Shown piece after piece: positions 1-15,289 of a stretch of DNA of 64,000 nt. The translations under genes and the position numbers were made by a program. Within the stretch, counting starts at the first letter, position 1; the number at the start of each line of letters is the position of its first letter. The DNA lies in the IMG/VR virus record IMGVR_UViG_3300013936_000026, positions 1,813-65,812 of that record; one strand, 5' to 3'. The stretch is from a virus (lineage: Duplodnaviria > Caudoviricetes). The notes under the pieces were generated by a model that worked only from the letters and a program-made list of their open reading frames with translations, was not told the DNA's origin and ran no database searches.

Positions 1-78
1 ACTTTATATGTCTCTTTCTACAGAACTTATCAAGAGCAACCAGTAGATTATATGCTTGATTTCTATTTAATGTCATAG

Positions 79-303
79 TCATGTGCTAAATAGGTCTAAA
101 ACATCTTGGGTAGAATACTCTACCATATTAAAAGTATTCCTAGATGCAGATGGAGTAGGAGATACCTTGTCTACAGAACGTAGATTAGTATGCTTATATT
201 CCAACTGCATCAAGGACAATATAGAGAATATATCAGTATCATCGCCTAGGTTATTGTTCAAGGCATACTGATTTACTTGTGACATGGTAATCATGAGTAC
301 CAA
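79..303 (-). CDS. Hypothetical protein (start possibly at 294)
   Basis: ORF track; co-oriented with neighbouring small minus-strand genes; no motif recognised. Confidence 0.35.
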   Translation of the reverse strand: MVLMITMSQVNQYALNNNLGDDTDIFSILSLMQLEYKHTNLRSVDKVSPTPSASRNTFNMVEYSTQDVLDLFST

Positions 304-449
304 TGATGACTACCATTCCACATAGTTCTTCTAGATGCAATAGACCAGTCTGGTCTATTGTTCATCATTCTGAACTGATTAGCTTGCTTATAGTTATCAA
401 ACTCTCTGATAACATGGTCTGTCTTGTCTAATAAAAGTATTGGCTTCAT
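291..449 (-). CDS. Small hypothetical protein, 52 aa (MKPILLLDKTDHVIREFDNY...)
   Basis: Translated by hand; ATG at 449, TGA at 291-293; fills the gap between adjacent minus-strand ORFs. Confidence 0.4.
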   Translation of the reverse strand: MKPILLLDKTDHVIREFDNYKQANQFRMMNNRPDWSIASRRTMWNGSHHWYS

Positions 450-464
450 ATTGCTTAATTTAAA

Positions 465-758
465 TTATTCAATATAATCATCATAGATGAGGAGGTAGGT
501 AGGAAATACAACTATATTCCCTATAAGCTTGCAGAATTGGTTGAACTCCTCAAGAGTGTTTATTATTACAATGCAGTTACTATAATACTTGATTGTAGTC
601 TTTACATCTTTCTGTTTTTTCCAATCCCATTTGCTTTGTGATTTCCTGTGAATTTCCTTGTTATGTTCAACAGTAACCCCATTCTTCTTTAGTAGCATTA
701 TTATATCTATAGATACACCTTCATACCAGTTTGATGCTTGTTGTAATTTGTACTTCAT
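465..758 (-). CDS. Hypothetical phage protein
   Basis: 97-aa ORF tightly packed in the minus-strand gene string. Confidence 0.6.
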   Translation of the reverse strand: MKYKLQQASNWYEGVSIDIIMLLKKNGVTVEHNKEIHRKSQSKWDWKKQKDVKTTIKYYSNCIVIINTLEEFNQFCKLIGNIVVFPTYLLIYDDYIE

Positions 759-764
759 AATTAT

Positions 765-1097
765 TTATTCATTAATATCATTAGCTAGATTATCCAACAA
801 TGCATTATAATGGAAACCATGATAGAATGTAGTGTCCATATTAGCTCTTAGATTGAGATAGTCTGACATAACATCAGAGCCATCCCTATCCCACAAGTCA
901 TTATTGTCCATGATGGCATCAGAAAGTCTAAGGGCTTCCTTGTACTCATTAAGCATTGCCTTGTTGCTCTGTAGGGAAGAAATAATTCTTCTCTGGGAAT
1001 TTGCAAGAGTAATGAACTTGAAGTTAAAGACCATTGATGTAAGGAGTAGGACAAAAAATATGCTTGCCACTACCCAAGGTGAATTATATTTCTTCAT
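765..1097 (-). CDS. Hypothetical protein with N-terminal transmembrane helix
   Basis: Hydrophobic WVVASIFFVLLLTSMVF followed by a coiled-coil-like stretch. Confidence 0.6.
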   Translation of the reverse strand: MKKYNSPWVVASIFFVLLLTSMVFNFKFITLANSQRRIISSLQSNKAMLNEYKEALRLSDAIMDNNDLWDRDGSDVMSDYLNLRANMDTTFYHGFHYNALLDNLANDINE

Positions 1098-1099
1098 TG

Positions 1100-1618
1100 C
1101 TATTTATTTAAATTTACTTGTAGTTCTTTTAATTCATTTAAAGCATCATCAAGAGCATTATGATTATTAGTTTTGAATGTTTTCCAATCTTTTACAGACT
1201 CCTTGATAGTTCTTATATCTCTCGGTTGCCAGAATTTCCAAGGAGTTTCTTTATTAAAGAACTCATATAAGTCTTTAAGACAAAATAAATCCATAGCTCC
1301 TTTAGTCCATACCAAGGTGTCCTCATTACTGTGAACTCTGAATATTGTATCTAATATATCTAAAGCTTGATTATAATTTGTACAATAATAAGAATGATAA
1401 TTACTCAATGGAGTATTTTCTTGATTCATCCACCAAAGTAGTGTTTCACCTGTAAAGGTTCTATTACAAGTATTCCAAGCTTCAGGAGCTATTTGTATTA
1501 GTTCCTTTCTCTCTACATTATAGTTTGAATTTGCTACAACAATACCTATTTGGGTAATAGCAGCATTATTTCTTCTACCTAAGGTTTCTATATCTATAAT
1601 TATATTATTCATTGTCAT
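1100..1618 (-). CDS. DEDD-type 3'-5' exo(ribo)nuclease (Rv2179c/DUF5051-like)
   Basis: Motifs IDIETLG, QIG, WQPRDIRT, HNALDDA. Confidence 0.8.
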   Translation of the reverse strand: MTMNNIIIDIETLGRRNNAAITQIGIVVANSNYNVERKELIQIAPEAWNTCNRTFTGETLLWWMNQENTPLSNYHSYYCTNYNQALDILDTIFRVHSNEDTLVWTKGAMDLFCLKDLYEFFNKETPWKFWQPRDIRTIKESVKDWKTFKTNNHNALDDALNELKELQVNLNK

Positions 1619-1695
1619 TTGTTTAAAGGGTTATGTTATAAAAATAATGATTAAAAGCTGACCTAGTATAGGTAAGTCAGCTATAATCTTATATG

Positions 1696-1947
1696 TTAAT
1701 ATTTCCATCCATCTCTAGTGTATATCTCTGTGCTATTTTCTCTATAAGTATAATCTATACCACCTGTAACTTTTTCATCCTTAGAAGATGATTTTGAGGT
1801 AATATTGGGATTCATATTGAAGAAGAACAATTTAATATCTTCCTCACTCATGTGTCCCTTGAACTCTACAGCACACTCTTTGTCAGGGTCAATATATACC
1901 TTTATCAGTAAGGGTTGTAATAAGAATAGCATCATGTAGAGTTGCAT
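1696..1947 (-). CDS. Hypothetical protein, possibly the frameshifted 3' part of a gene starting at 1978
   Basis: An upstream ATG at 1978 gives MILYKLEKVKNATLHDAILITTLTDKGIY then stops at a TATATA run, where this frame continues. Confidence 0.4.
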   Translation of the reverse strand: MQLYMMLFLLQPLLIKVYIDPDKECAVEFKGHMSEEDIKLFFFNMNPNITSKSSSKDEKVTGGIDYTYRENSTEIYTRDGWKY

Positions 1948-2141
1948 TCTTTACTTTTTCTAGCTTATATAGTATCATAATTGTAATATTTGATTAAAAA
2001 TGTTGTGAAAATTGTAATATTATTGAGTTGTTTGTACAAAAAGATTAGGTAGTGGAGTATATGAACTCTTGAAACCTAATCTCTTTGTGTGGGTAAAAAG
2101 TGTCAACTAATTACTTTATTATGGTAAATAGCATAGTTTCG

Positions 2142-2194
2142 ATAGATAGTAAAGATGGGGGAGAGGGTATAGCTCACCATCTTTAACTATCTGT
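2142..2194. terminator. Long stem-loop downstream of the 2206-2556 gene
   Basis: atagatagt-aaagatgg pairs with ccatcttt-aactatctgt. Confidence 0.5.
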
Positions 2195-2205
2195 CTATCT
2201 GCTAC

Positions 2206-2556
2206 TTAAAAGCCTAAGTCAACATCCTGCCAAGCATTCTGACCAGCTTTGCATAAAGCATACATATCCTTGCCATCAGCAGTGGTGCACTCAACCACCT
2301 GAAGCTCATCCTTCTGTTCAGCTATCTCTTGAGGGCTAAGCTCACCAAGGTTCCTTGAGAAGGCAACAAAAGTCTTGTTGGTCTTGTTGTCAGGATTGCT
2401 AGGGTCAGTGAATACACAGGATTTCCAAGAGTCACCAGTCTCACTGTTGGTAAACTGACCTACCTGCATTCTACCTTTCATCTTGGCAAAGGAAACCAAT
2501 GACCATGAGTTCTTGATACCATTTGAACTAACACTAGCTGCATTATTGTTCTGCAT
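2206..2556 (-). CDS. Conserved hypothetical protein, paralog A (WSL..FAK / MQVG.F.N.ETG / FVAFSRNLGEL family)
   Basis: Clear similarity to 4883-5203 and to the C-terminus of 36379-37395; likely start MQNNN at 2556. Confidence 0.75.
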   Translation of the reverse strand: MQNNNAASVSSNGIKNSWSLVSFAKMKGRMQVGQFTNSETGDSWKSCVFTDPSNPDNKTNKTFVAFSRNLGELSPQEIAEQKDELQVVECTTADGKDMYALCKAGQNAWQDVDLGF

Positions 2557-2843
2557 AATATTTCTCCATCTCAGAAGCACTGTCATTTGTAGTGAATGAC
2601 TAACTGACTGCAATACACAAACAATCTCTCAAGGACAGTCAACCCTATCAAGATAACTAAATTCTCTAGGCTTCCATAGTTTTATGAAACTACTTCCACC
2701 ATCAAGATATAGGGGTGGTGATGTGTCCCTTAAAATTTTATGGACTTAGTAAAGTATATACATTATTATATTATATAGTTATTTATTAAATATGTACGCA
2801 TGTATATAATAAGGTGTAGTGCTGAAGCTTTACTTTAGCAAAT

Positions 2844-2959
2844 GACTAGTGTGATGTGTTGATTTGAAGTATTACTTTAAGGTGTGTTATGCTCATGAGG
2901 ACTTTATGCTTATGAAGATAAAAGACTAATGTGATGTGTTTATTTAAAGTAAAACTTTA
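2844..2959 (+). repeat. Two 36-bp imperfect direct repeats (31/36 identical) with core GTGATGTGTT
   Basis: 2844-2879 vs 2924-2959, 80-bp period; a partial third core at 2718-2726. Confidence 0.7.
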
Positions 2960-3031
2960 GATAAAATGTTAAACTTAAATAAAAACTACAACTAAAAGCT
3001 GTAATATTTTGGTTGTTAATATAATAATGTG

Positions 3032-3039
3032 TACCTTTG
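3032..3039 (+). promoter_or_regulatory. Bacteroidetes primary-sigma -7 promoter element TAnnTTTG
   Basis: tacctttg followed by c; the same motif precedes many plus-strand units. Confidence 0.6.
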
Positions 3040-3044
3040 CAAAT

Positions 3045-3339
3045 GGCCCTAGGCAGTGGCAGTGCCTAGATTCACCCTATTAAGGTCCAGTGGATATATA
3101 GAGGGTTAGACATCAGATTGTAGGTTCAATATAGAGCTGAGGTTTTTCTGGTAGGTCAAAAATGGTTCTTGATATAAGCTAAGTGTCCACCAAGCTGCTA
3201 TGGAAAAAAGGTTGAGGGTAAACGGACTATAGGGAGTTAAAAAGCTTACGAGTTAAGTGAATACTGACCGCCTTAGTGAAGTTCTTGAATTAAAAACCAC
3301 AAAACAAGTCTTATTTATTTTTTTTTTTTGTTTTGTGGT
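3045..3339 (+). ncRNA. Candidate non-coding RNA between a promoter and a terminator-like hairpin
   Basis: No ORF in the track; 5' hairpin ctaggca-gtggcag-tgcctag; 3' hairpin accacaaaacaa/ttgttttgtggt at 3296-3339. Confidence 0.35.
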
Positions 3340-3488
3340 GATTTTGTGGGAATAACTATATCATTACGATATTTAAATATTAAAATATATTAAATTCAAA
3401 ACTTAAAGTTAAAGATATGATAGATGAAAAATCCTACAAACAAACTTCAAAAGTAGTATTTTAAGAAGGAAAGAGTGTTGCATCACTT

Positions 3489-3818
3489 ATGGCTCACTTT
3501 CCTACAGATAATGAGTTGAAGTTTAAAGACATTCTAGATAGTAAACATATTAAGTACAGATTTCAGAAAGTCTTCTTTAAGACTATAGCAGGAGTTAGAC
3601 ATACTGCTGAATGCTACTATGTTGCACAGTTTTGGCTACCAAGAAAAAGATTATTTATTGAGATTCCTTATGGTCATAGGTATAAGAAACCTAAGACTGA
3701 GGATTTTAGAAACTATGATGCTTTGGATGTTGTCAAAAGAGTACAATGTGTAAAACTATCTATGGAGGAACTCAATAATGAAGAGTTCATCAATAATTTT
3801 ATTCAACTAATTAAGTAA
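3489..3818 (+). CDS. DUF559/Vsr-like endonuclease-fold protein, active site apparently degenerate
   Basis: PT.NELKF..L, YRFQKVF, YVAQFW, LFIEI resemble this family; the canonical DF and IEIDG residues are altered. Confidence 0.5.
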   Translation: MAHFPTDNELKFKDILDSKHIKYRFQKVFFKTIAGVRHTAECYYVAQFWLPRKRLFIEIPYGHRYKKPKTEDFRNYDALDVVKRVQCVKLSMEELNNEEFINNFIQLIK

Positions 3819-3822
3819 TAAT

Positions 3823-4116
3823 ATGGAGAAATGGATTAACTTGAATATATTTAGTACATTACCAATATTTAATTCAACAACTAGAGTAATGCACAAGTTA
3901 CTTATGTTAGCTGTAAGAGAAGAGAATCAATGGAAAGTATATCTCAATACCAATATTAGAGAACAGATAATGAAGGACTGCAATGTTCCTAAGGCTTCGT
4001 ACTGTAGAGCAATAAAGGAATTGGAAGATTGTAATTTTCTTGCAAGGGATAAAGATATTTGCATCCTGAATTTACTAAGTGACTATGATAAGATGTCTAT
4101 TATCTTCAAGAGGTAA
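3823..4116 (+). CDS. Small helix-turn-helix DNA-binding protein
   Basis: IMKDCNVPKASYCRAIKELEDCNFL resembles a winged HTH. Confidence 0.5.
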   Translation: MEKWINLNIFSTLPIFNSTTRVMHKLLMLAVREENQWKVYLNTNIREQIMKDCNVPKASYCRAIKELEDCNFLARDKDICILNLLSDYDKMSIIFKR

Positions 4117-4142
4117 AGAAAAAATAAGCTAGCCCAACAGGA

Positions 4143-4322
4143 CTAGCTTTCTTTATCTCTTGTTTTGTACCAGATAACTCCTATCCAGAACAGTGTCCCC
4201 AATATCCATGAGAATACTGTATGTGCATTTAGAAAGTCAGTAGTCATTGCAATAACCAGCATGACTGTCTCATAGAGCAATAACATTCCAACTACATATA
4301 TAATTGCCTTGATATTCTTCAT
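4143..4322 (-). CDS. Small membrane protein, 59 aa (MKNIKAIIYVVGMLLL...)
   Basis: Translated by hand; two hydrophobic segments; ATG at 4322, TAG at 4143-4145. Confidence 0.55.
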   Translation of the reverse strand: MKNIKAIIYVVGMLLLYETVMLVIAMTTDFLNAHTVFSWILGTLFWIGVIWYKTRDKES

Positions 4323-4324
4323 AA

Positions 4325-4516
4325 CTAATCTCTTAAGAGTTTATACCAATGTTTGTAACCACTATACTTAATAAACTCATGAAGAGTGATATTATTGTAT
4401 AGCCAAGAGATTAAAACTATGTCTAGGACTAGCATGACTAGCCAGACTAGGCTAATTTCACTGCAAAGTAATATTGCAGAGAGTATTGCTGTGATATATA
4501 GGACTAATGCTTTCAT
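4325..4516 (-). CDS. Small membrane protein
   Basis: Two hydrophobic helices; tightly packed with neighbours. Confidence 0.6.
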   Translation of the reverse strand: MKALVLYITAILSAILLCSEISLVWLVMLVLDIVLISWLYNNITLHEFIKYSGYKHWYKLLRD

Positions 4517-4558
4517 AATTTAAAAAGGTTAAGGCTGCCCATTACAGACAGCCCTATG

Positions 4559-4819
4559 TTATACTTCCAGTGACTTGCAATGAGTGTTATACTCATCAAT
4601 GCTTACCTTCATGTTTCTTCCAAAGACTCTAATGGTCTTGAATCTATTAGATACTCTGTTTTTCTTGATGACAGGAACATCTATGCTTATGTCACCATTG
4701 ACTACCATCTCATTGAAATGAGAATGTCTCTCCTCAAGGAATATCTGGTGTATTCTTCTTGATTTCTTGTAGTCATCCGAGCTACAGATGGCTACTCTGT
4801 TGAATCTTTTTCTTGCCAT
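4559..4819 (-). CDS. Hypothetical basic protein
   Basis: 86-aa ORF in the minus-strand string. Confidence 0.6.
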   Translation of the reverse strand: MARKRFNRVAICSSDDYKKSRRIHQIFLEERHSHFNEMVVNGDISIDVPVIKKNRVSNRFKTIRVFGRNMKVSIDEYNTHCKSLEV

Positions 4820-4882
4820 AGTTGCTTGCTTTTGGGGTTGATGAAAAAGGGAAGCAGGTATCCCTGCCTCCCATAGTTACTC

Positions 4883-5203
4883 TTACAATCCAAGGTCAAC
4901 ATCCTCCCATGTGTTTTGACCTTTCTTGCAGAGGGAATACATGTCTCTGCCATCAGATGTCTCGCATTGCACAACCTGCAAGTCATCCTTCTGCTGGGCA
5001 ATCTCCTGAGGTGTTAATTCACCCAAGTTTCTTGAGAATGCCACGAAGGTTCTGGTATCACCATTGGTGAAGATGGTAGAGTGGAACATTTCTCCAGTCT
5101 CCTTGTTGGCAAACTCACCAACCTGCATCTTAGGACCAAACTGCTTTGCAAATGCAATGAGTGACCATGAGTTCTTGATGTTGTTAACTGCTGTGTTAGC
5201 CAT
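4883..5203 (-). CDS. Conserved hypothetical protein, paralog B
   Basis: Shares IKNSWSL, MQVG.F, FVAFSRNLGEL.PQEIA and C-terminal W.DVDLG[FL] with 2206-2556. Confidence 0.75.
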   Translation of the reverse strand: MANTAVNNIKNSWSLIAFAKQFGPKMQVGEFANKETGEMFHSTIFTNGDTRTFVAFSRNLGELTPQEIAQQKDDLQVVQCETSDGRDMYSLCKKGQNTWEDVDLGL

Positions 5204-5649
5204 AAAGCTTTGCCTCCTAGCAGGACTTATTTAGTGCTAGGCATTGATTCCTCAGGTGCTTTCCCTAGAGGCATGTGTGCAGATGGCTATTCCCACTAGA
5301 ACTCCATGGGAATGGAAGGCTACTATGCTTCACCCTCAACCATCATGGATTGAAAGACCCCAGGGGGTATATCCCAATCCAAGATATGGTGGGGGTGGTG
5401 TGTTGTATTATCCTCACCTTTTACACACACTTTTCAAATTTCAAAAAATCGTCCTCTATGCACATTCAAAATTTTCTCTAAAATGGAGTAGGGAATACTT
5501 TCATTATAGAATTACGTCCTAAATTAATACAAAAGCATCCTGCCTTTATACTCTCACCACCTAACAATTATAGTTAGATTTTGCTCATAATTCTTTGTAG
5601 TTTAGATAATTAATCGTATCTTTGCAGCATAAACTTAAAGTAATAAAGT

Positions 5650-5961
5650 ATGAAGGGATTAAGAAGATACATAGCAAAGCATGGAAGACATTTCACTGTA
5701 GAGTTAGCTATGAAGGTTATTGATTGCAAATGGGGCTCATCAGAGGTAGAGAATGCTTCTGATAGGGCAGTATACTATAATGTATCAGAAGCTACAATAG
5801 GAGATATAGTGTTCTTAACTAACTTGTTCTCTGAGAGCTTTTCCAAGAGAAGATGTATAAAGTATGCTCTCGAAATAGTAGGAAATGTTGATAGAAATGG
5901 CTATGCCTTTGATGCTTGGTTATCTTCTCATGAAGATATTGATCTAACTGAGTATATATAA
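5650..5961 (+). CDS. Hypothetical protein, distant homolog of 50673-51095
   Basis: YIAKHGRHFT vs YLRHNGWHFN; DRNGYAFDAW vs DQQDGFIFNRF; promoter motif tatctttg at 5617-5624. Confidence 0.6.
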   Translation: MKGLRRYIAKHGRHFTVELAMKVIDCKWGSSEVENASDRAVYYNVSEATIGDIVFLTNLFSESFSKRRCIKYALEIVGNVDRNGYAFDAWLSSHEDIDLTEYI

Positions 5962-6041
5962 ATGAAAAGGGGAAGCATTGCTGCCTCCCCTAAACAACTA
6001 ACTTAAAAACCTATAAACGTATGAAAAAAGAAATTATATAT

Positions 6042-6413
6042 CTAAACTCCTCCTAACCTATCAGCTGATGCTTCAGTATAAAACCAATTATATGGTTTGC
6101 TTGGAGCTACCTTCTTATGGGTAGCCGCCCAAATAATACTAGGAATACCTATTACTAGAAGATATAAAGGACCTAGCATCAAGCTCTGTCTAGTATGTCC
6201 ATACTCATGCTTCACAGTACTGTCTGTTGCTCTTGGTGAGAGAAAGATATGATTGCCAAGAGTGACACTTCTACATGATGTTCTTTTGATAAATACTATG
6301 GCATCTTGATAAGTGCAAGTATCTAGAATCTCACCTTTATTACTAAGATATGTGAAATATATGTAGGCAGCTATTGTTTGTGGAAGCTGCCAAATGTATT
6401 TTAGTATTTCCAT
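6042..6413 (-). CDS. Membrane-associated HExxH protein (putative metallopeptidase)
   Basis: KHEYGH motif followed by a hydrophobic helix; minus-strand promoter motif at 6441-6448 suggests start MEILK at 6413. Confidence 0.6.
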   Translation of the reverse strand: MEILKYIWQLPQTIAAYIYFTYLSNKGEILDTCTYQDAIVFIKRTSCRSVTLGNHIFLSPRATDSTVKHEYGHTRQSLMLGPLYLLVIGIPSIIWAATHKKVAPSKPYNWFYTEASADRLGGV

Positions 6414-6569
6414 AATGTATATACTTAATGATTCACATTGCAAAGATAGTAATAGATGAGGTACTATGGTAGTATCTAGCCCTTGTTGTTAAGTAATATA
6501 AGAATGATTATTAGATATTTGCTTTTATAGTTAGATTTAAGTATCTTTGCATCACATAAGAAAGGTAAT

Positions 6570-7184
6570 ATGAAAACATATACATATATAGCAGGTGTAT
6601 TGGTAGTAGTCATGGGATTCATCATAGCAATTCTCTGGGATAGCAAGGATAAAGCAGAGAAGAAATGGAAGGATGCTATGGAGAATGTCAAGTCCTATGA
6701 ACAGCAATTCAGTTCCTCGAAAGATAAGAATAGAGCATTCAAGCTGACTATAGATCAACTAAAGAATAGTAATGACTCTATCTTTGCTAAGTTGAATGCT
6801 ACTAGGAAAGAGTTGAAGATAAAAGACTCAAAGCTAAAGAGTTTACAGTACATAGGTTCGGACTTTTCCAAAGTAGATACCATTAGGATACCTGGGGACA
6901 CTATATTCAAGGATACTAATCTAAACATAGATACACTACTCTCAGATGAATGGTATTCTGTTAAGGTCGGGTTGAAATACCCATCAACAGTAGTGGTACA
7001 ACCTAAATTTAAAAGTGAAAAACACATTGTGGTATCTGCCAAGAGGGAGACTGTGAAGCCCCCAAAGAAATTCTTCTTGTGTCGATGGCTACAAAAGCAT
7101 CATTGGGTGGTGAATGTTGATGTAGTTGAGGAGAATCCTTATGTGCAGAACCAGACAAATAGGTATGTGGAAATAGTTAGGTAA
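6570..7184 (+). CDS. Rz/spanin-like protein (N-terminal TM, coiled coil, beta-rich C-terminus)
   Basis: IAGVLVVVMGFIIAILW, heptad-rich region, KKFFLCRWLQK near the C-terminus; promoter motif at 6542-6549. Confidence 0.5.
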   Translation: MKTYTYIAGVLVVVMGFIIAILWDSKDKAEKKWKDAMENVKSYEQQFSSSKDKNRAFKLTIDQLKNSNDSIFAKLNATRKELKIKDSKLKSLQYIGSDFSKVDTIRIPGDTIFKDTNLNIDTLLSDEWYSVKVGLKYPSTVVVQPKFKSEKHIVVSAKRETVKPPKKFFLCRWLQKHHWVVNVDVVEENPYVQNQTNRYVEIVR

Positions 7185-7239
7185 AAGGATTGTTTTAGGA
7201 TTTTGTTTTTAGGTTGAATTTTTGTTTTTTTTTCATTTT

Positions 7240-7270
7240 CTCCCTCTGTCAGTGGACAGGGGGAGTTTTT
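7240..7270. terminator. Hairpin terminator between convergent genes
   Basis: ctccctctgtc-agtg-gacagggggag followed by a T run. Confidence 0.7.
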
Positions 7271-7278
7271 GTTTTATA

Positions 7279-8499
7279 TCATTCTTTGTTATTGTCTTCT
7301 GTATAGATGTCAGTGATATTATCCATTTGTTCTCCTATGTACTTATCAAGCAGCTTTGCATAATGAGTAGTCATTCTTGTGTTGGTGTGTCCTAGCATCT
7401 TTGATACTACCTCAAGAGATACATTGTTCGCCAAGGTGACAGTGCTGGCAAAGGTATGTCTTGAGGTGTGGAAGGTTATGTGTTTGTCTATGTGACAATA
7501 TAGGGCAATATCCTTGAGATATTTATTAATGTCCGAAGCATCCTGTATAGGGATTAATTTATCACAATCTCTATACTTTTCTAGTATCATCTTAGCCATT
7601 GGAAGCAGAGGTATCCTAGATAGTACACCTGTCTTTACTCTTTTCTTCTTTATCCAGATTCTACCTTCATCATCTTTCTCAAAGTGTTCAAGTTTGAGGG
7701 TCTTGATGTCAATGTAAGCTAGACCTGTGAAGCAGCCAAAGAGAAAGAAGTCTCTTGCCTTCTCTAGTCTAGGAATAGGAGTATCAAAGTTGATGATTCT
7801 TCTTAGTTCTTCCTCTGTAAGGAAATCTATATCCACAGGTTTTCTTTCTATCTTATAGTTTGCAAGCATATTATATGATATATAGTTGTTGGAGACAGCT
7901 AGGGTAACAATGCTCTTCAAATACTTCAGATGCTTGGTACAAGTATTCTGTGCCATGCCTTTGTCTGATAGAAGAAATGTATGGAATAATTGCATAAATC
8001 CTATGTTTATTTCATTAAGAAGAATATCATCTCTATCATATTCTTTTTGCATAAACTCTAGCAGTAGATTCCTACTATGCTCAAAGCTATATAAGGAAGC
8101 TTTAGATATACCTTTTCCTAATAGCTTGTTCTTGTTTTCATTATACTCTGAGATTACTTGCATGAGAGTCTTGTCTTTTAATGATTCCACCTTATTATAT
8201 ATAGCATCCTTCAGGAGATGTACTGTAACCATATAGCCCCTTTTCATGAGTTCAACCTCCTTCTCATAGATTTTATTTCTTAGCTCTATGAGATAGTCAT
8301 TGATGAGTTGAGCTTCCTGAGTGCTACCTTTCATCGTTTGCTTTTGTTTGTTCCAATCTGATGCTTTGGCAAACTTGCCTGTACTGAAATAAATTCTCTC
8401 TCCATTATAGGAGATAGATGCTTCAATAGGTGATAGTCCCTTCTTGTTTTTCTTACTTGCTCTGATGGAGAAGTAAACCATGATGCAATGATTTTCCAT
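7279..8499 (-). CDS. int: Tyrosine integrase, Bacteroidetes type (arm-binding, SAM-like and catalytic domains)
   Basis: GCFTGLAYID (Arg-I replaced, as in Bacteroidetes integrases), FHTSRHTFA, SKMLGH...TTHYA; N-terminal SISYNGERIYFSTG arm-binding-like segment. Confidence 0.95.
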   Translation of the reverse strand: MENHCIMVYFSIRASKKNKKGLSPIEASISYNGERIYFSTGKFAKASDWNKQKQTMKGSTQEAQLINDYLIELRNKIYEKEVELMKRGYMVTVHLLKDAIYNKVESLKDKTLMQVISEYNENKNKLLGKGISKASLYSFEHSRNLLLEFMQKEYDRDDILLNEINIGFMQLFHTFLLSDKGMAQNTCTKHLKYLKSIVTLAVSNNYISYNMLANYKIERKPVDIDFLTEEELRRIINFDTPIPRLEKARDFFLFGCFTGLAYIDIKTLKLEHFEKDDEGRIWIKKKRVKTGVLSRIPLLPMAKMILEKYRDCDKLIPIQDASDINKYLKDIALYCHIDKHITFHTSRHTFASTVTLANNVSLEVVSKMLGHTNTRMTTHYAKLLDKYIGEQMDNITDIYTEDNNKE

Positions 8500-8621
8500 T
8501 TACTTATCTTTAATTTAAGGTAAGCAAGTGAGTATTATTGACTTAGTGTAAAATTGCAGCCCATTTACATAAATTAGCTTTTGGGCTGCAAATGGGCTGC
8601 AAAAATAGTCTGAAATAGGCA

Positions 8622-8656
8622 TAAAAAATCCCCACAGCCTTATGACCATGGGGATT
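8622..8656 (-). terminator. Rho-independent terminator after the GGGtGRT fragment
   Basis: Minus-strand aatccc-c-atggtc-ataa-ggctgt-gggatt (G-U pairs) followed by a T run. Confidence 0.6.
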
Positions 8657-8687
8657 ACATTTACTTATATCCTGTATGCTCTTTACC

Positions 8688-8858
8688 TTACTTCTTGTTC
8701 AAAGCGAGGTCTACAGCTACGGCGATAGCTACAGTAGCACCAACCATAGGGTTGTTACCCATACCGAGGTAACCCATCATCTCTACGTGAGCAGGAACTG
8801 AAGAAGAACCTGCGAACTGAGCGTCAGAGTGCATACGACCCATAGTATCGGTCATACC
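8688..8858 (-). pseudogene. 3' end (56 codons plus stop) of a bacterial GGGtGRT-family gene; att core / replacement sequence
   Basis: Hand translation GMTDTMGRMHSDAQFAGSSSVPAHVEMMGYLGMGNNPMVGATVAIAVAVDLALNKK*, recognised as the conserved C-terminus of GGGtGRT proteins; GC-richer than its flanks; upstream codons missing. Confidence 0.85.
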
Positions 8859-8982
8859 ATGGGAATAGTATTATTCCTTGGTTGTTATTTACTTATAAGT
8901 CAAATACTTATATCTTGCTTACCTTGTTCAACATGTTAATGAACTCTTGAGTAGGCTGCAACTAAGACAAATAATATCCTGT

Positions 8983-10301
8983 CACTAGTGTCCCGTTTAA
9001 CTGGGGCAATTATTATATAAGTTATTTATTTTCAATATTTTATATTCTATAAGTCGTGTATTCGATTTGATTTTGTACTTTTGTACTCATAATTAATTTA
9101 TGCGTACAATGAACAAAGGCAAAACTATATTTTCCCAGATTATGTCACTTATACCAGAACGTGATTTCAAGGCTTGCGTTGACCGTTATAAAGGTAACTA
9201 TAGAGCAAGAAACTTTACCTGTAGGGATCAGTTCTTGGTAATGAGTTATGCACAATTGACAGGTCGTGATAGTCTCCGAGACATAGAAAATTGTCTTATG
9301 GCACTCTCAACAAAACTTTACCATTGCGGTATTAGTTATGCTGTTCCTCGTAATACGTTAGCTAAAGCCAACGAGAATAGAGACTGGCACATCTATAAAG
9401 ACTTCGCAGAGGTACTATTAAAAAAAGTACGTCCACTTTACGCTAAGGAACATTTTAGACTTGAGCTTGACAACATGGTCTATGCCTTTGACAGTAGCAC
9501 CATAAGTTTATGTCTTAAACTCTGCCCTTGGGCTAAGTTCCGTAAGACTAAGGGAGGCATAAAAATGCATACATTGTTAGACTTACGTGGTAATCTACCA
9601 GTGTCTGTCTATCTGACTACAGCATCCGTAAATGACGTGAAGGGATTGGATGAGCTTTATATAGAACCAGCTGCTATATACTTGATGGACAAAGGGTATG
9701 TTGACTTTAATCGTCTCTTCAAATTGATAAATAAGAAGAATGCATACTTTGTCACCAGGGCTAAAGATAACATGCTTTTCGATGTAGTATCAGTAAGTCC
9801 TGTTGATCAAAGCACTGGAGTCATTGCCGATGAACATATCAAATTAACAGGACAGCGCACCTCCAAATGGTATCCTGAAGAACTAAGGATGGTAACGTAT
9901 GAAGACTATGCAACAAATAATGTGTATAGATTCCTCACAAACAACACGGAATTTGAAGCCATTACCATTTCTGAGTTATATAGAGAAAGATGGAACGTGG
10001 AGCTGTTCTTTAAATGGATTAAGCAACATCTTCACATCAAATCATTTTATGGAACTTCAGAAAATGCCATATATTTACAAATTTGGATTGCCATTTGTAC
10101 CTATTTACTTCTTGCTTATGCAAAGAAGGTGATGCACATTGAACAATCGTTACACACTATTTCAAAGAACGTGGGTCTATTCCTTACGGATAAGACTCCT
10201 TTAAACGAATTATTCTACAAAGCTGTTCCTAAAGAAGAGCCGGAGGATTTATGGTATCCTAGTCTTTTTAAGCCCGACGATTTCTAAACGGGACAGCAGT
10301 G
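8983..10301 (+). mobile_element. IS4-family insertion sequence, 1319 bp
   Basis: 16-bp terminal inverted repeats, 14/16 match (cactagtgtcccgttt 8983-8998; aaacgggacagcagtg 10286-10301); 9-bp target duplication atatcctgt at 8974-8982 and 10302-10310. Confidence 0.95.
9100..10287 (+). CDS. IS4-family DDE transposase (start possibly 9109)
   Basis: N-terminal GKTIFSQ..DUF4372-like region; AFDSSTI, LMDKGY, LYRERWNVELFFKWIK (YREK motif). Confidence 0.95.
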   Translation: MRTMNKGKTIFSQIMSLIPERDFKACVDRYKGNYRARNFTCRDQFLVMSYAQLTGRDSLRDIENCLMALSTKLYHCGISYAVPRNTLAKANENRDWHIYKDFAEVLLKKVRPLYAKEHFRLELDNMVYAFDSSTISLCLKLCPWAKFRKTKGGIKMHTLLDLRGNLPVSVYLTTASVNDVKGLDELYIEPAAIYLMDKGYVDFNRLFKLINKKNAYFVTRAKDNMLFDVVSVSPVDQSTGVIADEHIKLTGQRTSKWYPEELRMVTYEDYATNNVYRFLTNNTEFEAITISELYRERWNVELFFKWIKQHLHIKSFYGTSENAIYLQIWIAICTYLLLAYAKKVMHIEQSLHTISKNVGLFLTDKTPLNELFYKAVPKEEPEDLWYPSLFKPDDF

Positions 10302-10348
10302 ATATCCTGTTTTAGCCTTTCTCTGATTGAAATGTTTTGTTTCTGATG

Positions 10349-10356
10349 CAAAGGTA
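10349..10356 (-). promoter_or_regulatory. Minus-strand TAnnTTTG promoter facing the att site
   Basis: Reverse complement tacctttg followed by c; divergent from the plus-strand motif at 10465-10472. Confidence 0.5.
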
Positions 10357-10464
10357 CTAACTTTATTTGAAATAAAGAAGAGTCCTATAGTACTTGCTGT
10401 ATTAAATATAGTTAAGAGAATAAAGATTTAAGATGTTTACTAAGACTTTTTAAAAAGAAAAGTG

Positions 10465-10472
10465 TATCTTTG
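10465..10472 (+). promoter_or_regulatory. TAnnTTTG promoter upstream of the packaging-gene unit
   Basis: tatctttg followed by c in an AT-rich intergenic region. Confidence 0.55.
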
Positions 10473-10587
10473 CAACAGAAAATACTTAGATGTATAACAA
10501 GCTACAAGACAGTATAAAAGAACGCTTTGTTAAAGTGATACTTTAAGTAAATATGTAAGGAAAAGAAACTTTAAAAACAAGAATATT

Positions 10588-10809
10588 ATGGTATCAAAAA
10601 TTAAATCCACATCCATCAGTAGGGATGAACAGAGATGGCAAGCTGAGAGTGATGCTGACACCATGGCAAGGTATCAAGAGATAATGAATGATAGTGCCAG
10701 GAGAAACAGAGCTATCAAGGTCGCTAAGACAAAGGCTGCTGAACTCTCCAAGAGAGCAAGTGCAATGCAGAATGTTGCAAAGGTTAAGTCACCCTCTAAA
10801 AGAAAGTAA
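10588..10809 (+). CDS. Small basic hypothetical protein
   Basis: K/R/A-rich 73-aa ORF after the promoter. Confidence 0.7.
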   Translation: MVSKIKSTSISRDEQRWQAESDADTMARYQEIMNDSARRNRAIKVAKTKAAELSKRASAMQNVAKVKSPSKRK

Positions 10810-10812
10810 CCT

Positions 10813-10974
10813 ATGAAGACTCATATAGATTATTTTGTAGCTAGGTCACTTAGGCTACTGATAGATGCTGTTAATCAGTATAATGAAAACAATCCAGATA
10901 CCCCTGTCTTGAAGGAGGACATTGTAGAGGTCAAGGAAACAGGAGAGGGTTATATTCTCTTGTATTATAGATAA
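10813..10974 (+). CDS. Small hypothetical protein, 53 aa (MKTHIDYFVARSLRLL...)
   Basis: Translated by hand; fills the gap between adjacent genes. Confidence 0.55.
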   Translation: MKTHIDYFVARSLRLLIDAVNQYNENNPDTPVLKEDIVEVKETGEGYILLYYR

Positions 10975-10998
10975 GGTGTAACGTTCAATTCTATTGTT

Positions 10999-11430
10999 AT
11001 GACAAAATCAAAGAAGATAATGAAAGAGGAGGAAGATCCTTGGACATTCTGTCCTAAGTGTTACTCCATAAGGTTCAAGTATGAGGATTCACTTGGAACT
11101 GAATGCTGTGAGGACTGTGGTTGCACAGACCTAAAGACCTCTACCTTTGAGGAATGGGATAAGCTATATAGAAATAGATATGGGCATCCTTATTTGGAAG
11201 ATGCAGGTCTTGTCAAGAAATCACCTATATTCCTATTGACAGATGAGCAATTGAAGACTAGGTTATTCAAGCATCCTGATTGTATGAGGATTTGCAAGGA
11301 ACTATACCCTGCATTCCCAGGAGGACTTAGCAAAGAGGATGCTGTGTTGTTGTTATTCTCAAAACTTGTCAATGACAATAGGTTGGATGCACTTAGAATG
11401 AATTTATATAACAGAACTAAAAATAAGTAA
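10999..11430 (+). CDS. Zinc-ribbon protein
   Basis: CPKC...CEDC pair. Confidence 0.7.
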   Translation: MTKSKKIMKEEEDPWTFCPKCYSIRFKYEDSLGTECCEDCGCTDLKTSTFEEWDKLYRNRYGHPYLEDAGLVKKSPIFLLTDEQLKTRLFKHPDCMRICKELYPAFPGGLSKEDAVLLLFSKLVNDNRLDALRMNLYNRTKNK

Positions 11431-11434
11431 AAGT

Positions 11435-11740
11435 ATGGAAGAGCAGAATAAATCAAAGGTAGTGAAGATGAATGCAGGCAATAATAAGTCTGAGGAAAAG
11501 AAAAAACTTAGTTATGAACAACTTAATGATGCTTGCAATCAGTTGTTTCAGCAAAATCAGCAACTTGCTAGAAGAAACAGGGAGCTTGAGGGATTTGCAA
11601 TGAATAAGAGACTTGATTATCTCTTTAAGGTATTGGAGTTCAGTAATAATTTCTCAAGTGATTTTGTAGGCAATTGTGCCAGTGAGATTGAGGAAGCAAT
11701 GACTATTCCTCAGGAAGTAGAAGAACATAAAGGCAAATAG
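11435..11740 (+). CDS. Coiled-coil hypothetical protein
   Basis: ORF track; operon packing. Confidence 0.7.
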   Translation: MEEQNKSKVVKMNAGNNKSEEKKKLSYEQLNDACNQLFQQNQQLARRNRELEGFAMNKRLDYLFKVLEFSNNFSSDFVGNCASEIEEAMTIPQEVEEHKGK

Positions 11741-11741
11741 T

Positions 11742-12176
11742 ATGGAAGAGTCAACAAACAATAAAAACAATGGTTTCCACTTGCCAAAGCCTAACAATGT
11801 GATACCTATCAAGGTAACAATGGGCTTGGACTTCTTCAAGTGGTGGTGCCTGTTCCTAAAGCCATTCATCAATCTTACTCCTAGGGAGAGAGATGTTATA
11901 GCAAGTTTTCTCAATCAGAGATGGGAACTTTCTAAGAAGACAAGTGATCCTGCCATCCTTGATACCATGGTGATGAGTAATGATACAAAGAGTAAGGTTA
12001 TTGCTGAGTGTGGAATTACACAGGCACATTTCTATGTAGTGATGAGCAATCTCAGAAAGAACAAAATTATTGTGAATAATGTTATTAATCCAAGGTTGAT
12101 TCCTAACATTAGGAAGGATGACAATGGTTACTTTCAGTTGCTGGTATTGTTTAAAGATAGTCAGTTGAGTGCATGA
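11742..12176 (+). CDS. Hypothetical protein (possible winged-helix DNA binder)
   Basis: LTPRERDVIA and CGITQAHFYVVMSNLRKNKII resemble HTH elements. Confidence 0.6.
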   Translation: MEESTNNKNNGFHLPKPNNVIPIKVTMGLDFFKWWCLFLKPFINLTPRERDVIASFLNQRWELSKKTSDPAILDTMVMSNDTKSKVIAECGITQAHFYVVMSNLRKNKIIVNNVINPRLIPNIRKDDNGYFQLLVLFKDSQLSA

Positions 12177-12442
12177 CCTATAAAGATATTATAGTAAAGG
12201 TAGCTGGTGACTTAGGTCTTTCCAAGAGACTTGTAGATAAGACTTACAGGGCTTATTGGAAAGCTGTGAGGGAGCATATTTCCTCATTGCCTTTGAAGGA
12301 AGACCTGACTGATGAGGAGTTTATGAAACTGCAACCTAATGTGAACATTCCTTCCATAGGCAAGCTTTATGTTACTCTTAACAGATACCACAGGATAAAT
12401 GAATCATATAATAATTATTTACAAAAACAAAATAAAAAGTAG
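12173..12442 (+). CDS. HU/IHF-like small DNA-binding protein
   Basis: MTYKDIIVKVAGDLGLSKRLVDK...VNIPSIGKLYV follows the HU pattern. Confidence 0.6.
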   Translation: MTYKDIIVKVAGDLGLSKRLVDKTYRAYWKAVREHISSLPLKEDLTDEEFMKLQPNVNIPSIGKLYVTLNRYHRINESYNNYLQKQNKK

Positions 12443-12446
12443 AATT

Positions 12447-12860
12447 ATGTTACATATTACATCTATAAAGCCCTTGTTTAATCACTTATTGATTACCGCT
12501 GATAAGTTTGAGAAGGATATGATTAGCAATGGAGTCATTGTTGCTGGCAAAGGAGATTTAAAGTTATGGCAGACTGTTATTGCCATTGGTTTTACAGTCA
12601 GAGACATTAAGGTAGGAGACAAGGTAATGATTATTCCTGACCATTTTGCCGTAAAGAAGTACAATAAGAACTCTGTTCAGAATGACTTGGACAATAATCC
12701 TGTCCTCACCTATAATTTCCCAATTGAAACAATAGATGACAAGGATGGTAATCCACAGGAATATCTTTACATCTCAGACAATGATGTAAGATATGTCTTT
12801 TATGGAGAGGAGAAGGACGAAGCTCTCATTACCCCTGGTAAGGCTAAATTAATAGTATAA
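12447..12860 (+). CDS. GroES-like co-chaperonin
   Basis: IKPLFNHLLI...VIAIG..VRDIKVGDKV matches the GroES signature; likely start at 12447. Confidence 0.65.
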   Translation: MLHITSIKPLFNHLLITADKFEKDMISNGVIVAGKGDLKLWQTVIAIGFTVRDIKVGDKVMIIPDHFAVKKYNKNSVQNDLDNNPVLTYNFPIETIDDKDGNPQEYLYISDNDVRYVFYGEEKDEALITPGKAKLIV

Positions 12861-12985
12861 GGTGAATTTGAATTTTTCATGATTTTTTCTAAATGAGACA
12901 ATAGCTCTAGCCTGTGAAGGTTGGGGCTATTTTTATGTTATCTAAGCATTAGTCTTAGATACTTGCCTATACCTTATTATATATA

Positions 12986-13015: not shown

Positions 13016-15289
13016 ATGGAGAATATAAGGTTTAATAAATGTCAGACACCTCTTGAAGACTTACATCTAGAGAACTATCCTACGGAAGTGCAAGAACAAT
13101 TTTGGGATTTCCTTAACAATGTTCCCCTTATCAAGTGGATGGTGTCTCCTGATAGACCTCTTGTGTCAGAACTTCCTAGAAATAAGGAAGGCAGGGCTAT
13201 CATAGATATTACACATCCTCCTATTTTGGAAGGAAGTGATTATTTCAGACCATCAGCATTAGCTTTTGAAAAAAACAAAGGAAGATATTCCTTGCTAAGA
13301 CCTAATGCCAATCCTAACAGTGACTATGGCAGATGGCTATATGGTGAGAGGAGCAGGGGATGGAATGGCTATTGTAATCCTCAGACAGGCATGTGGGTTA
13401 CAGGAGATTACTATTGGATGCTTAATTTCTGTCCTATGCACCTTGTCAAGAAAAATGAGAAAGGAGTATCCATGAGAACTGTAGCCCATCCTAGATTTTG
13501 GGATGGTCAGTTCCTAATGTCTCATTACTTGCATCAAGGTAGAGTTCATGGACATCATGCTTCTGCATTGGCTAGTCGTGGTAGGGGTAAGACTAGCTTT
13601 GGAGCTGGACTTCTTGCTAGGAGATGTATAATAGGAGAAACAGAAGATAATAGGAAGGAAGTACAGTGTATGGTTACTGCTGTAGATAGAACCAAACTTA
13701 TGGATACTAATATGATTCTCAAGGTATTCAAGGATAACCTAGACCATTGTGCAAAGTATACTCAGTTTGCATCAAGGAGATTAAAGTCATCAGACCAAGA
13801 GATGGAATGGAAGATGGGATTCAAAAAGGCAGGTAGTGAGGTGGAATATGGCAGTAAGAACTCTGTGTCAGGTATTATCTCAGGTGTTAACCAAGATAAG
13901 TTGAATGGTTCTCGTGGAGTATTATATCTTATTGAGGAGGCAGGTATCTTCAAGAACTTGCTTAGTGTATTCAATATGATTAGACCTTCTGTAGAGCAGG
14001 GTAATGATACCTTTGGTGAAATTTTTGCTTATGGGACTGCTGGAGATGATCAATCTGACTTTACAGCCTTTGCTGAGATGTTCTATTCTCCTGAAGGATA
14101 TAACATGGAACCTTTAGAGAATGTCTTTGATAAGGAAGGGCAGGGAAGGAAGCATTGTTGCTTCTTCTATGGTGCCTATATGAACTATGGTAATGACTAT
14201 ATTGATGAGAACGGTAACTCTGATGTTACCAAGGCTTTGCTTGCCATACTATATGATAGATACAAAGTAAAGTATGGTTCCACTGATGTCAATACCATTG
14301 TAAAACGTATATCCCAATATCCTATAGTTCCACAGGAAGCCATGATGAGAAGTCATGGTAACGTCTTTCCAGTGACAGAACTTAATGAGAGATTAAATCA
14401 GATAGATAACAATCCTAATGAGTATGATGATACTTATGTAGGAGAGTTGGTACAAGATAATAAAACAGGAGAGATTAAGTTCAATCCTACGGCAGATTTA
14501 CCTATCAGAGATTTCCCTACTAAAGATAATAAAGTGAAGGGTGCTCTTGAGATATTTGAGATGCCTAAGAAGGGAAGTGATGGCAAGGTTCCTGCTGGCA
14601 GATATATTCAGAGTGCTGACCCATTTGATAGTGATTGCTCTAATACTATGTCATTAGGTTCTTTGTTTATACTTGACTTATGGACGGATATGATAGTTGC
14701 AGAGTATACAGGAAGACCTCCTTTTGCTGAAGATTTCTATGAGATGGCAAGAAAACTATGTCTGTTCTATAACTGCAAGTGTATGTATGAACAGAACATC
14801 ATGGGTATGTTCTCTTACTTTAGTTCCCATAATTCTGTTCATCTGCTGGCAGAGACTCCAGAGTATCTTGTACAGAGAAACATGATAAGTAGTATAGGCT
14901 ATGGCAATAAGTCTGTAGGTATCAGAGCTATCACTCCTATTATCAATGGTGCATTCAAGATGATACAGACTTGGCTTAGGAAACCTATAGTAACCATTGA
15001 GACAGATGAGAATGGGGAGAATAGGGAAGTACAGATAGCTAATCTATACAGAATAAAGAATAGAGCCTTGCTAAAGGAACTTGTGTTATGGAATCCACAG
15101 GGTAACTTTGATAGGGTGATGAGCTTGGTTCAACTTATGCTCTATAGGGAGGAGAAAATGGTTCTTTACCATGGAGACTTAAAGCATACTGAAGAGGTAG
15201 GCTCTGGCATGGAGAAAGATGATTATTGGGATAAGAACTATCCAGGAAAGAAGGACTATGGTATAGCAGTAAAAAGTTGGTATGAGTAA
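13016..15289 (+). CDS. terL: Terminase large subunit, crAss-like
   Basis: Walker A ASRGRGKTS, Walker B YLIEEAG, nuclease SADPFD...FDRVMSL; 757 aa, uninterrupted. Confidence 0.9.
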   Translation: MENIRFNKCQTPLEDLHLENYPTEVQEQFWDFLNNVPLIKWMVSPDRPLVSELPRNKEGRAIIDITHPPILEGSDYFRPSALAFEKNKGRYSLLRPNANPNSDYGRWLYGERSRGWNGYCNPQTGMWVTGDYYWMLNFCPMHLVKKNEKGVSMRTVAHPRFWDGQFLMSHYLHQGRVHGHHASALASRGRGKTSFGAGLLARRCIIGETEDNRKEVQCMVTAVDRTKLMDTNMILKVFKDNLDHCAKYTQFASRRLKSSDQEMEWKMGFKKAGSEVEYGSKNSVSGIISGVNQDKLNGSRGVLYLIEEAGIFKNLLSVFNMIRPSVEQGNDTFGEIFAYGTAGDDQSDFTAFAEMFYSPEGYNMEPLENVFDKEGQGRKHCCFFYGAYMNYGNDYIDENGNSDVTKALLAILYDRYKVKYGSTDVNTIVKRISQYPIVPQEAMMRSHGNVFPVTELNERLNQIDNNPNEYDDTYVGELVQDNKTGEIKFNPTADLPIRDFPTKDNKVKGALEIFEMPKKGSDGKVPAGRYIQSADPFDSDCSNTMSLGSLFILDLWTDMIVAEYTGRPPFAEDFYEMARKLCLFYNCKCMYEQNIMGMFSYFSSHNSVHLLAETPEYLVQRNMISSIGYGNKSVGIRAITPIINGAFKMIQTWLRKPIVTIETDENGENREVQIANLYRIKNRALLKELVLWNPQGNFDRVMSLVQLMLYREEKMVLYHGDLKHTEEVGSGMEKDDYWDKNYPGKKDYGIAVKSWYE

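Follow-up and report, generated by a model that had tools for sequence, protein, structure and literature searches.

Can a phage of the order Crassvirales, usually called non-integrating, exist as a prophage? The question is raised by a 64,000-nucleotide stretch of viral DNA (hereafter the window) that covers bases 1813-65812 of the linear 65.8-kb IMG/VR virus record IMGVR_UViG_3300013936_000026 (CheckV completeness 57%). In this stretch, a tyrosine integrase gene lies beside a copy of the end of a bacterial protein-coding gene, GGGtGRT, with phage genes on either side. The first-pass annotation of this DNA proposed a temperate crAss-like phage that targets the 3ʹ end of GGGtGRT, with the window as its unintegrated form. 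We found the phage attachment site (attP) and both types of host junction (attL and attR) in relatives, and our analysis upholds that proposal: the window very probably represents a temperate crAss-like gut phage of Prevotella, in its free state with attP, that integrates at the 3ʹ end of GGGtGRT. We directly observed the parts of the locus, independently assembled copies of the attP arrangement and, among related phages, junctions of both types, one of them the attR of a 99.6%-identical phage.

An attP site around a host gene end

A 55-amino-acid frame on the minus strand (8688-8855) matches positions 277-325 of the 327 in the Pfam GGGtGRT profile with an E-value of 9e-29, which establishes the peptide identity suggested earlier. 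DNA homology to bacterial genes extends over 8688-8860 on the minus strand, 173 bp that correspond to the last 56 codons and the stop of the host gene; this is the block common to attP and the host site, attB. The fragment is 48.6% G+C, a value like that of the host, as against 31-36% in its flanks. A terminator supplied by the phage, a 13-pair hairpin with a T tail (8656-8627, minus strand), lies 32 bp past the fragment's stop. The neighbouring integrase (7279-8499, minus strand) is a 406-residue protein encoded by a frame without stops. It has N-terminal arm-binding (Arm-DNA-bind_5, PF17293, E 2e-12), SAM-like core-binding (Phage_int_SAM_5, 1e-13) and catalytic (Phage_integrase, 4e-15) domains in Pfam, and it matches PHROG 1 (integrase) at 2e-43. 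Residues H344, R347 and H371, and the nucleophile Y380, align with catalytic residues of XerA (5hxy) and a XerC-like protein (4a8e). Pfam, PHROG and the hairpin thus confirm the earlier description of an intact tyrosine integrase next to a 56-amino-acid C-terminal fragment and a terminator.

The sequence GGCTGCAA occurs four times in the whole window, always within 8554-8961, and the copies flank the fragment. Three lie in the integrase-proximal arm (8500-8687, which also holds the terminator), at 8554-8561 on the minus strand and at 8584-8591 and 8595-8602 on the plus strand. The fourth (8954-8961) lies in the terminase-proximal arm (8861-8982), inside a 40-nt stretch (8927-8966) that is conserved in all relatives. 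The same layout is seen in L004, L047 and L101, and the arm pattern is present in nine viral and 24 metagenome contigs. Because the integrase has an arm-binding domain, we read these copies as putative arm-type sites of a lambda-like POPʹ attP. In one relative (L004/L022; IMGVR_UViG_3300001528_000107), the segment matching window positions 6663-12936 is inverted relative to its flanks, and the GGGtGRT fragment is only 88 bp long (29 codons), without the part that holds the usual breakpoint.

Where in the shared block would recombination occur? Homology between phage and host breaks at window positions 8858-8860, and alignments of attP, attL, attR and attB all show the same breakpoint. At the break, the host reads ...TCTTAY followed by GGTATGAC, whereas the phage reads ...TTCCCAT followed by RGTATGAC. 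Fragment position 3 is A in attP and attR of the common fragment type, and G in attB and attL; on these alignments the predicted crossover falls beyond position 3. In L090, fragment position 113 has a host-type base, which suggests that the crossover precedes that position. More broadly, phage fragment alleles track host alleles. The contig L003, from another sample, differs from the window at four fragment positions, three of them in its last 30 bases, though the two are 99.7% alike elsewhere; this pattern fits exchange with host copies. When L003 and L071 are compared with window positions 8688-8742, L003 has host-type bases at several of the differing positions.

The attP arrangement is not peculiar to one assembly. 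The same join of integrase and attachment site is present in L003, which is 99.3-99.7% identical to the window, and the fragment lies inside a complete related genome (G402; 122,866 bp, CheckV 100%) at 90174-90329. When metagenome contigs were scanned for the conserved arm pattern, 24 stretches emerged, 18 of which continue past the fragment; 11 of the 24 are attP forms, with arm, fragment, integrase and spanin gene in order and coverage of up to 4949x. The concern that integrase and attachment site had been wrongly joined to the virion genes is answered by these independent copies.

Just beyond the region described in the first-pass annotation, and overlooked there, is an insertion sequence (IS) of 1,319 bp (8983-10301, plus strand). 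Its transposase gene (9100-10287) has DUF4372 and DDE_Tnp_1 matches in Pfam, its ends are the inverted repeats CACTRSTGTCCCGTTTA, and it is bordered by a 9-bp target duplication, ATATCCTGT, at 8974-8982 and 10302-10310. Full-length copies with 82% identity are found in genomes of the host genus. The element is missing from L003, where over 18.5 kb of otherwise near-identical sequence position 8982 is joined directly to 10302, and also from the attR contig L085. The IS is a recent arrival that lies outside attP proper. Since near-identical phages lack it, the integrase and attachment region and the virion genes are truly contiguous.

Junctions with host chromosomes

Is the phage found joined to bacterial DNA? 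Seven of the 24 metagenome contigs are attR forms, in which the arm leads into the fragment and then into bacterial chromosome, with no integrase; they carry at least six different host flanks. Together with one IMG/VR record they make eight attR contigs (L085, L086, L089, L090, L082, L083, L095 and L043), and there is one attL contig (L101), so the search for junctions proposed with the original reading has succeeded on both sides.

In L086, the 1,505 bp that follow the fragment are 96.3% identical to the chromosome of G345 directly downstream of GGGtGRT, and include genes for a DUF4293 protein, ribosomal protein S16 and a flippase. L085 (contig ERZ808270.6 NODE_6; 131,152 bp, 8x) has genes for the same three proteins in its flank, from a species other than that of L086, and G345 and about 30 other genomes show synteny with this flank in the stretch 1.7-3.4 kb downstream of their GGGtGRT. 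The phage part of L085 is 99.6-99.7% identical to window positions 8688-8982 and 10302-12283; hence, the window's own phage type has been assembled joined to a chromosome. L090 (UEOZ01000013.1, a 140,307-bp contig) has 19 kb of host flank, and its flank and that of L089 contain glycosyltransferase and flippase genes. The flank of L082 matches G437. In L043, L083 and L095 the flank corresponds to the intergenic stretch that follows carB in G539, and the first base of L043 adjoins the carB stop codon, as would be expected of a provirus trimmed at a gene edge. Unoccupied attB sites are present in G345 and G539.

The attL contig is a 78.7-kb record (CheckV 67%) in which residues 233-337 of GGGtGRT are encoded in frame, followed by the integrase and the spanin gene. 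The GGGtGRT part, which includes the GGGTGRT-coding stretch, runs off the end of the contig. The record becomes homologous to the attP genome L100 (89.6-93% identical) precisely at the edge of the fragment, equivalent to window position 8858, and one continuous reading frame leads from host residue 233 into the phage-borne end and on to residue 337.

Which bacterium is the host? In a sample of 401 species genomes from a single GTDB family, the best matches to the fragment DNA are G345 (94%, on a 3.86-Mb contig) and G152 (93%). The fragment is also 93.6% identical to MT837192, a bacterial contig with a full 337-amino-acid GGGtGRT gene, and proteins 95% identical to that GGGtGRT carry the source name Prevotella sp. 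The presence of 12-34 SusD genes in each of G001, G345, G152, G397 and G329 identifies the tested genomes as Bacteroidota. Judged by these matches, the host is Prevotella sensu lato, in agreement with the Prevotella-like host suggested at the outset. The exact fragment allele of the window was found in none of the sampled species. Two database labels in this comparison look wrong: MT837192.1 (L005) is filed as “Bacteriophage sp.” but showed no sign of a phage and has a full bacterial GGGtGRT gene, and L002 (CAVCSC010000015.1), a metagenome-assembled genome labelled “Lachnospiraceae bacterium”, has 12 SusD genes and belongs to the Bacteroidota.

We propose that the N-terminal domain of the integrase would bind GGCTGCAA-type sites on both arms, and that attP (about 8517-8982) would recombine with the host's GGGtGRT gene at its 3ʹ end. 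The crossover would fall within the 173 bp that the two have in common, close to the 5ʹ edge of this block (8858-8860). The attL product would run from the host gene body into the phage-borne last 56 codons and the phage terminator, and then into the integrase gene; the attR product would run from the terminase-side arm into the displaced host gene end and the host chromosome. Since the phage supplies the last 56 codons and a terminator, the GGGtGRT gene would stay whole after integration. Indeed, the replacement gene end keeps the frame, not only in L101 but also in the related small element L002, which leaves a gene for 337 amino acids; the gene ends of the window and L002 differ at two residues, both conservatively. 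In this scheme we infer the assignment of arm sites, the exact crossover point, the control of lysogeny, and excision.

Phage identity and the integrase slot

To the right of the attachment region are the genes for the large terminase subunit (TerL), a crAss-type capsid protein and tail proteins, and a giant open reading frame; to the left of the integrase are phage genes that include an exonuclease gene and a spanin-like gene (6570-7184, plus strand; PHROG 739, 8.5e-5), which borders the integrase. Homologues of the spanin gene adjoin the integrase in L075-L096 and in L101. The att region therefore does have phage genes on both sides, as the first reading had it.

TerL (13016-15289, plus strand; phrog_6681, 8e-98) served to place the phage and to find its relatives, 38 related viral loci. 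It matches 159 records, and the names among the matches listed are those of crAss-like phages: crAssphage, Bacteroides crAss isolates, IAS virus, and Cellulophaga and Flavobacterium phages. The closest named genome is that of Pamirivirus faecium cr116_1 (Crassvirales, Steigviridae), with 52% identity. The major capsid gene is of crAss type and is in two pieces on the plus strand, one at 16653-17114 (phrog_11589 positions 1-148) and one at 18182-19240 (PF23898 positions 157-495, E 1e-146). By capsid (PF23898) and TerL matches, the phage can be classed as crAss-type, which bears out the earlier assignment; its family assignment is provisional.

The pieces of the capsid gene are separated by an insertion of ~1.07 kb that encodes a GIY-YIG homing endonuclease (17241-18035, by PHROG matches). 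This insertion (about 17094-18168) is precisely missing in L024, L043, L026, L033 and L037, and is probably a mobile intron; a search of it against Rfam gave no intron match. Stop-codon recoding was ruled out as the cause of the split, since reading TAG as Q or TGA as W gives no longer frames. The TerL gene is itself broken by an insertion of ~1 kb in several relatives (L043 at 3608-6907, and L045, L046, L050, L051, L053, L055, L080, L084 and L089). In these, the match is spread over about 3.3 kb rather than 2.27 kb, with the break near residue 193, 340 or 532, which suggests several independent introns or inteins.

The giant open reading frame encodes more than 2,897 amino acids (55304-64000) and matches phrog_14770, a PHROG family without a stated function, with an E-value of 1e-245. 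Genomes of relatives are 108-128 kb in size, and a 240,419-bp metagenome contig has two copies of the arm ~119.8 kb apart, a spacing that gives the unit genome length. We conclude that the complete phage is about 115-120 kb long.

Related phages do not all use this integrase. Those with 63-88%-identical TerL have other integrases in or near the same slot, either less than 36% identical to that of the window or undetectable by BLAST. Relatives with 87%-identical TerL are not integrase-less: very divergent integrases occupy the same slot. Other integrases in or near the slot include those at 5779-7005 in L025, at 5754-6938 in L034 and at 114568-115038 in G704, and in two relatives the slot integrase is accompanied by a tRNA gene (tRNA-Arg at 7046-7121 in L034; tRNA-Val at 6616-6691 in L049). 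C-terminal remnants of the window's integrase family, ~60 amino acids long and 74-88% identical, are found in G703 (606-794; L073 and L143) and in L135-L144. They sit beside other integrases or beside the spanin gene, and look like scars of cassette replacement. Taken together, these comparisons suggest that what lies between the lysis and packaging genes is an integration cassette that can be exchanged. A 651-kb ENA contig encodes an integrase of 91% identity (P0013), and a 21,962-bp NCBI contig appears to encode an integrase of 84% identity as well as a full GGGtGRT protein (P0018, P0131).

The same target is also used by elements that are much smaller. L002 has a full 337-amino-acid GGGtGRT gene and an integrase with 79% identity, and its cargo includes helicase and SocA genes. 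Several host genomes have two GGGtGRT 3ʹ ends 1.3-8.7 kb apart (G397:C16 19142-20612; G106:C14; G171:C13; G306:C1 401267-410138), and many viral contigs of 4-24 kb have 60-72%-identical integrases beside GGGtGRT sequence. Small integrative elements of Prevotella thus use the same integrase family and the same GGGtGRT target. When the 401 genomes were searched for the crAss capsid, there was a single match (G329:C3 108706-110097; L018). It lies on a 115.5-kb contig on which we found no TerL or integrase related to those of the window phage, and it is probably a different crAss-like genome that was binned with the host, unrelated to the window phage.

Rival readings and known systems

Could the junction contigs be artefacts? 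If assemblers had formed chimeras through the near-identical shared block, the phage need never integrate. The block is 173 bp in the window and up to about 270 bp in relatives, phage and host copies are 90-100% identical, and with such similarity any single junction contig could be a mis-join. Moreover, assembly stops within or next to the fragment in at least nine contigs (L021, L024, L037, L045, L076, L087, L092, L094, L097 and L098), which shows that the assembly graph branches there. However, a mixture of integrated and free forms would likewise branch the graph. Seven of the 18 metagenome contigs that pass the fragment are attR forms, from different assemblies and with at least six host flanks, and an attL contig exists too. 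Two of the junction contigs (131 and 140 kb) exceed the ~120-kb genome, and the start of L043, directly beside the carB stop, is what trimming of a provirus would give. We consider chimerism throughout to be very improbable. We find it just as hard to believe that the integrase and attP are a selfish cassette, acquired from small Prevotella elements and with no role in the phage life cycle. It is true that small elements share the integrase family and the target (L002 with its cargo, the doubled gene ends and the 4-24-kb contigs), that other integrases fill the slot in relatives, and that some relatives keep a C-terminal remnant only. But the phage has a single attachment site, with no second copy to bound a cargo, so the cassette cannot move on its own. 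In the junction contigs, host DNA meets phage structural genes at one junction and the integrase and spanin genes at the other, so the integrated unit is the whole phage.

A different doubt concerns the window copy rather than its lineage, which may integrate while this copy is crippled because the IS at 8982/8983 cuts the terminase-side arm of attP. The IS is 122 bp from the core edge and only 21 bp beyond the outermost recognised arm motif, so it might impair attP; arms of heterobivalent integrases can reach that far, as in lambda attP. All four recognised motifs and the 40-nt stretch (8927-8966) are nonetheless intact on the core side of the IS, the integrase is intact, and none of the analyses run indicated a needed site beyond 8982. 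We regard such damage as unlikely, but give it some weight. Integration by a functional phage has other points to contend with. The aligned position of the first canonical catalytic arginine (Arg-I) is occupied by Ala261, although a non-arginine there is presumably usual for CTnDOT-type integrases. No open reading frame in 1-7200 or 10588-12860 has a Pfam or PHROG match to a repressor, antirepressor or excisionase; profile searches often miss small regulators of phages, and the negative therefore carries little weight. No attL of the window's own allele was found in the scan of viral contigs, and none of the 401 sampled species genomes of the host family has a related prophage. Finally, the evidence for junctions consists of assembled contigs, and no single contig was seen with both junctions. 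Set against the attP copies, the eight attR contigs and the attL contig, these points leave a temperate phage that integrates at GGGtGRT as the reading we prefer.

How does this compare with what is known of the order? According to published descriptions, cultured crAss-like phages either cannot lysogenise or are phage-plasmids that do not integrate (PMC8375218, PMC10983915), and in a 2026 preprint the order is still said to lack stable integration (bioRxiv 10.64898/2026.08.21.746148). Catalogue papers record 12 prophages of crAss-like type in pigs and, in mice, lineages of Crassvirales that are rich in integrases; within Steigviridae integrases are rare (PMC12454387, PMC13503771). Crass-like prophages and integrase-bearing Crassvirales are thus already catalogued, which qualifies the novelty of the temperate reading. 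Our literature search found no paper that describes the attachment site of a crAss-like phage, and none that names GGGtGRT as a target. The phages crAss001 and Carjivirus communis belong with the window phage to one order by capsid and terminase, and likewise have Bacteroidales hosts, but they are described as lacking integration, whereas the window lineage has attP, attL and attR. In Pamirivirus faecium cr116_1, despite its 52%-identical TerL, there is no integrase in the 16-kb stretch examined, and the gene order after TerL differs. Among crAss-like records in the phage collection, none has a similar integrase; the best match in the collection (36%) is in unannotated “Bacteriophage sp.” records. 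The temperate Bacteroides phages LoVEphage, BS-TP2 and BI-TP1 have integrases of the same broad family, 29-30% identical to that of the window, but are unrelated phages of 57-72 kb that are not crAss-like.

The mechanism has familiar counterparts. At icd of Escherichia coli, the lambdoid phage 21 and the element e14 use a tyrosine integrase to enter the 3ʹ end of a protein-coding gene, and their own copy of that end keeps the gene intact. Repair of a gene end by a tyrosine-integrase phage is therefore ordinary; what differs here is the type of phage, the host phylum, the target (GGGtGRT), the integrase subfamily and the shared block, whose length is given above. Integrases of the CTnDOT/NBU type from Bacteroides (IntDOT, IntN1 and IntN2) act on conjugative or mobilisable elements, which they insert for the most part into tRNA genes or at sites that are only loosely defined. 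The window integrase probably resembles them in its domain set, which is typical of Bacteroidota, and in the non-arginine at Arg-I; the positions of H344, R347, H371 and Y380 are probably close to those of IntDOT. In contrast to those enzymes, it moves a phage of ~120 kb into a protein-coding gene. We think it highly likely that a branch of an order usually called non-integrating forms true prophages, by a mechanism that is itself ordinary in a carrier that is unusual.

What would lysogeny mean for these phages? Crassvirales are among the most abundant gut phages, and their persistence without lysogeny is a standing puzzle. Now that the attachment site, the two kinds of junction and the unoccupied host site have been described at base resolution, lysogeny in this lineage is directly testable. 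Induction offers a possible route to crAss-like phages, and the pair of integrase and attachment site could be tried for single-copy insertion in Prevotella. On balance, we lean towards a broader proposal, that an entire lineage of crAss-like Prevotella phages, 110-130 kb in size, is temperate, with integrase and attachment cassettes that are swapped in a fixed slot between the lysis and terminase genes and shared with small host elements. If this is true, every exchange of cassettes would direct the phage to a different place in the chromosome, and the long persistence of crAss-like phages in Prevotella-rich guts would be explained in part by lysogeny.

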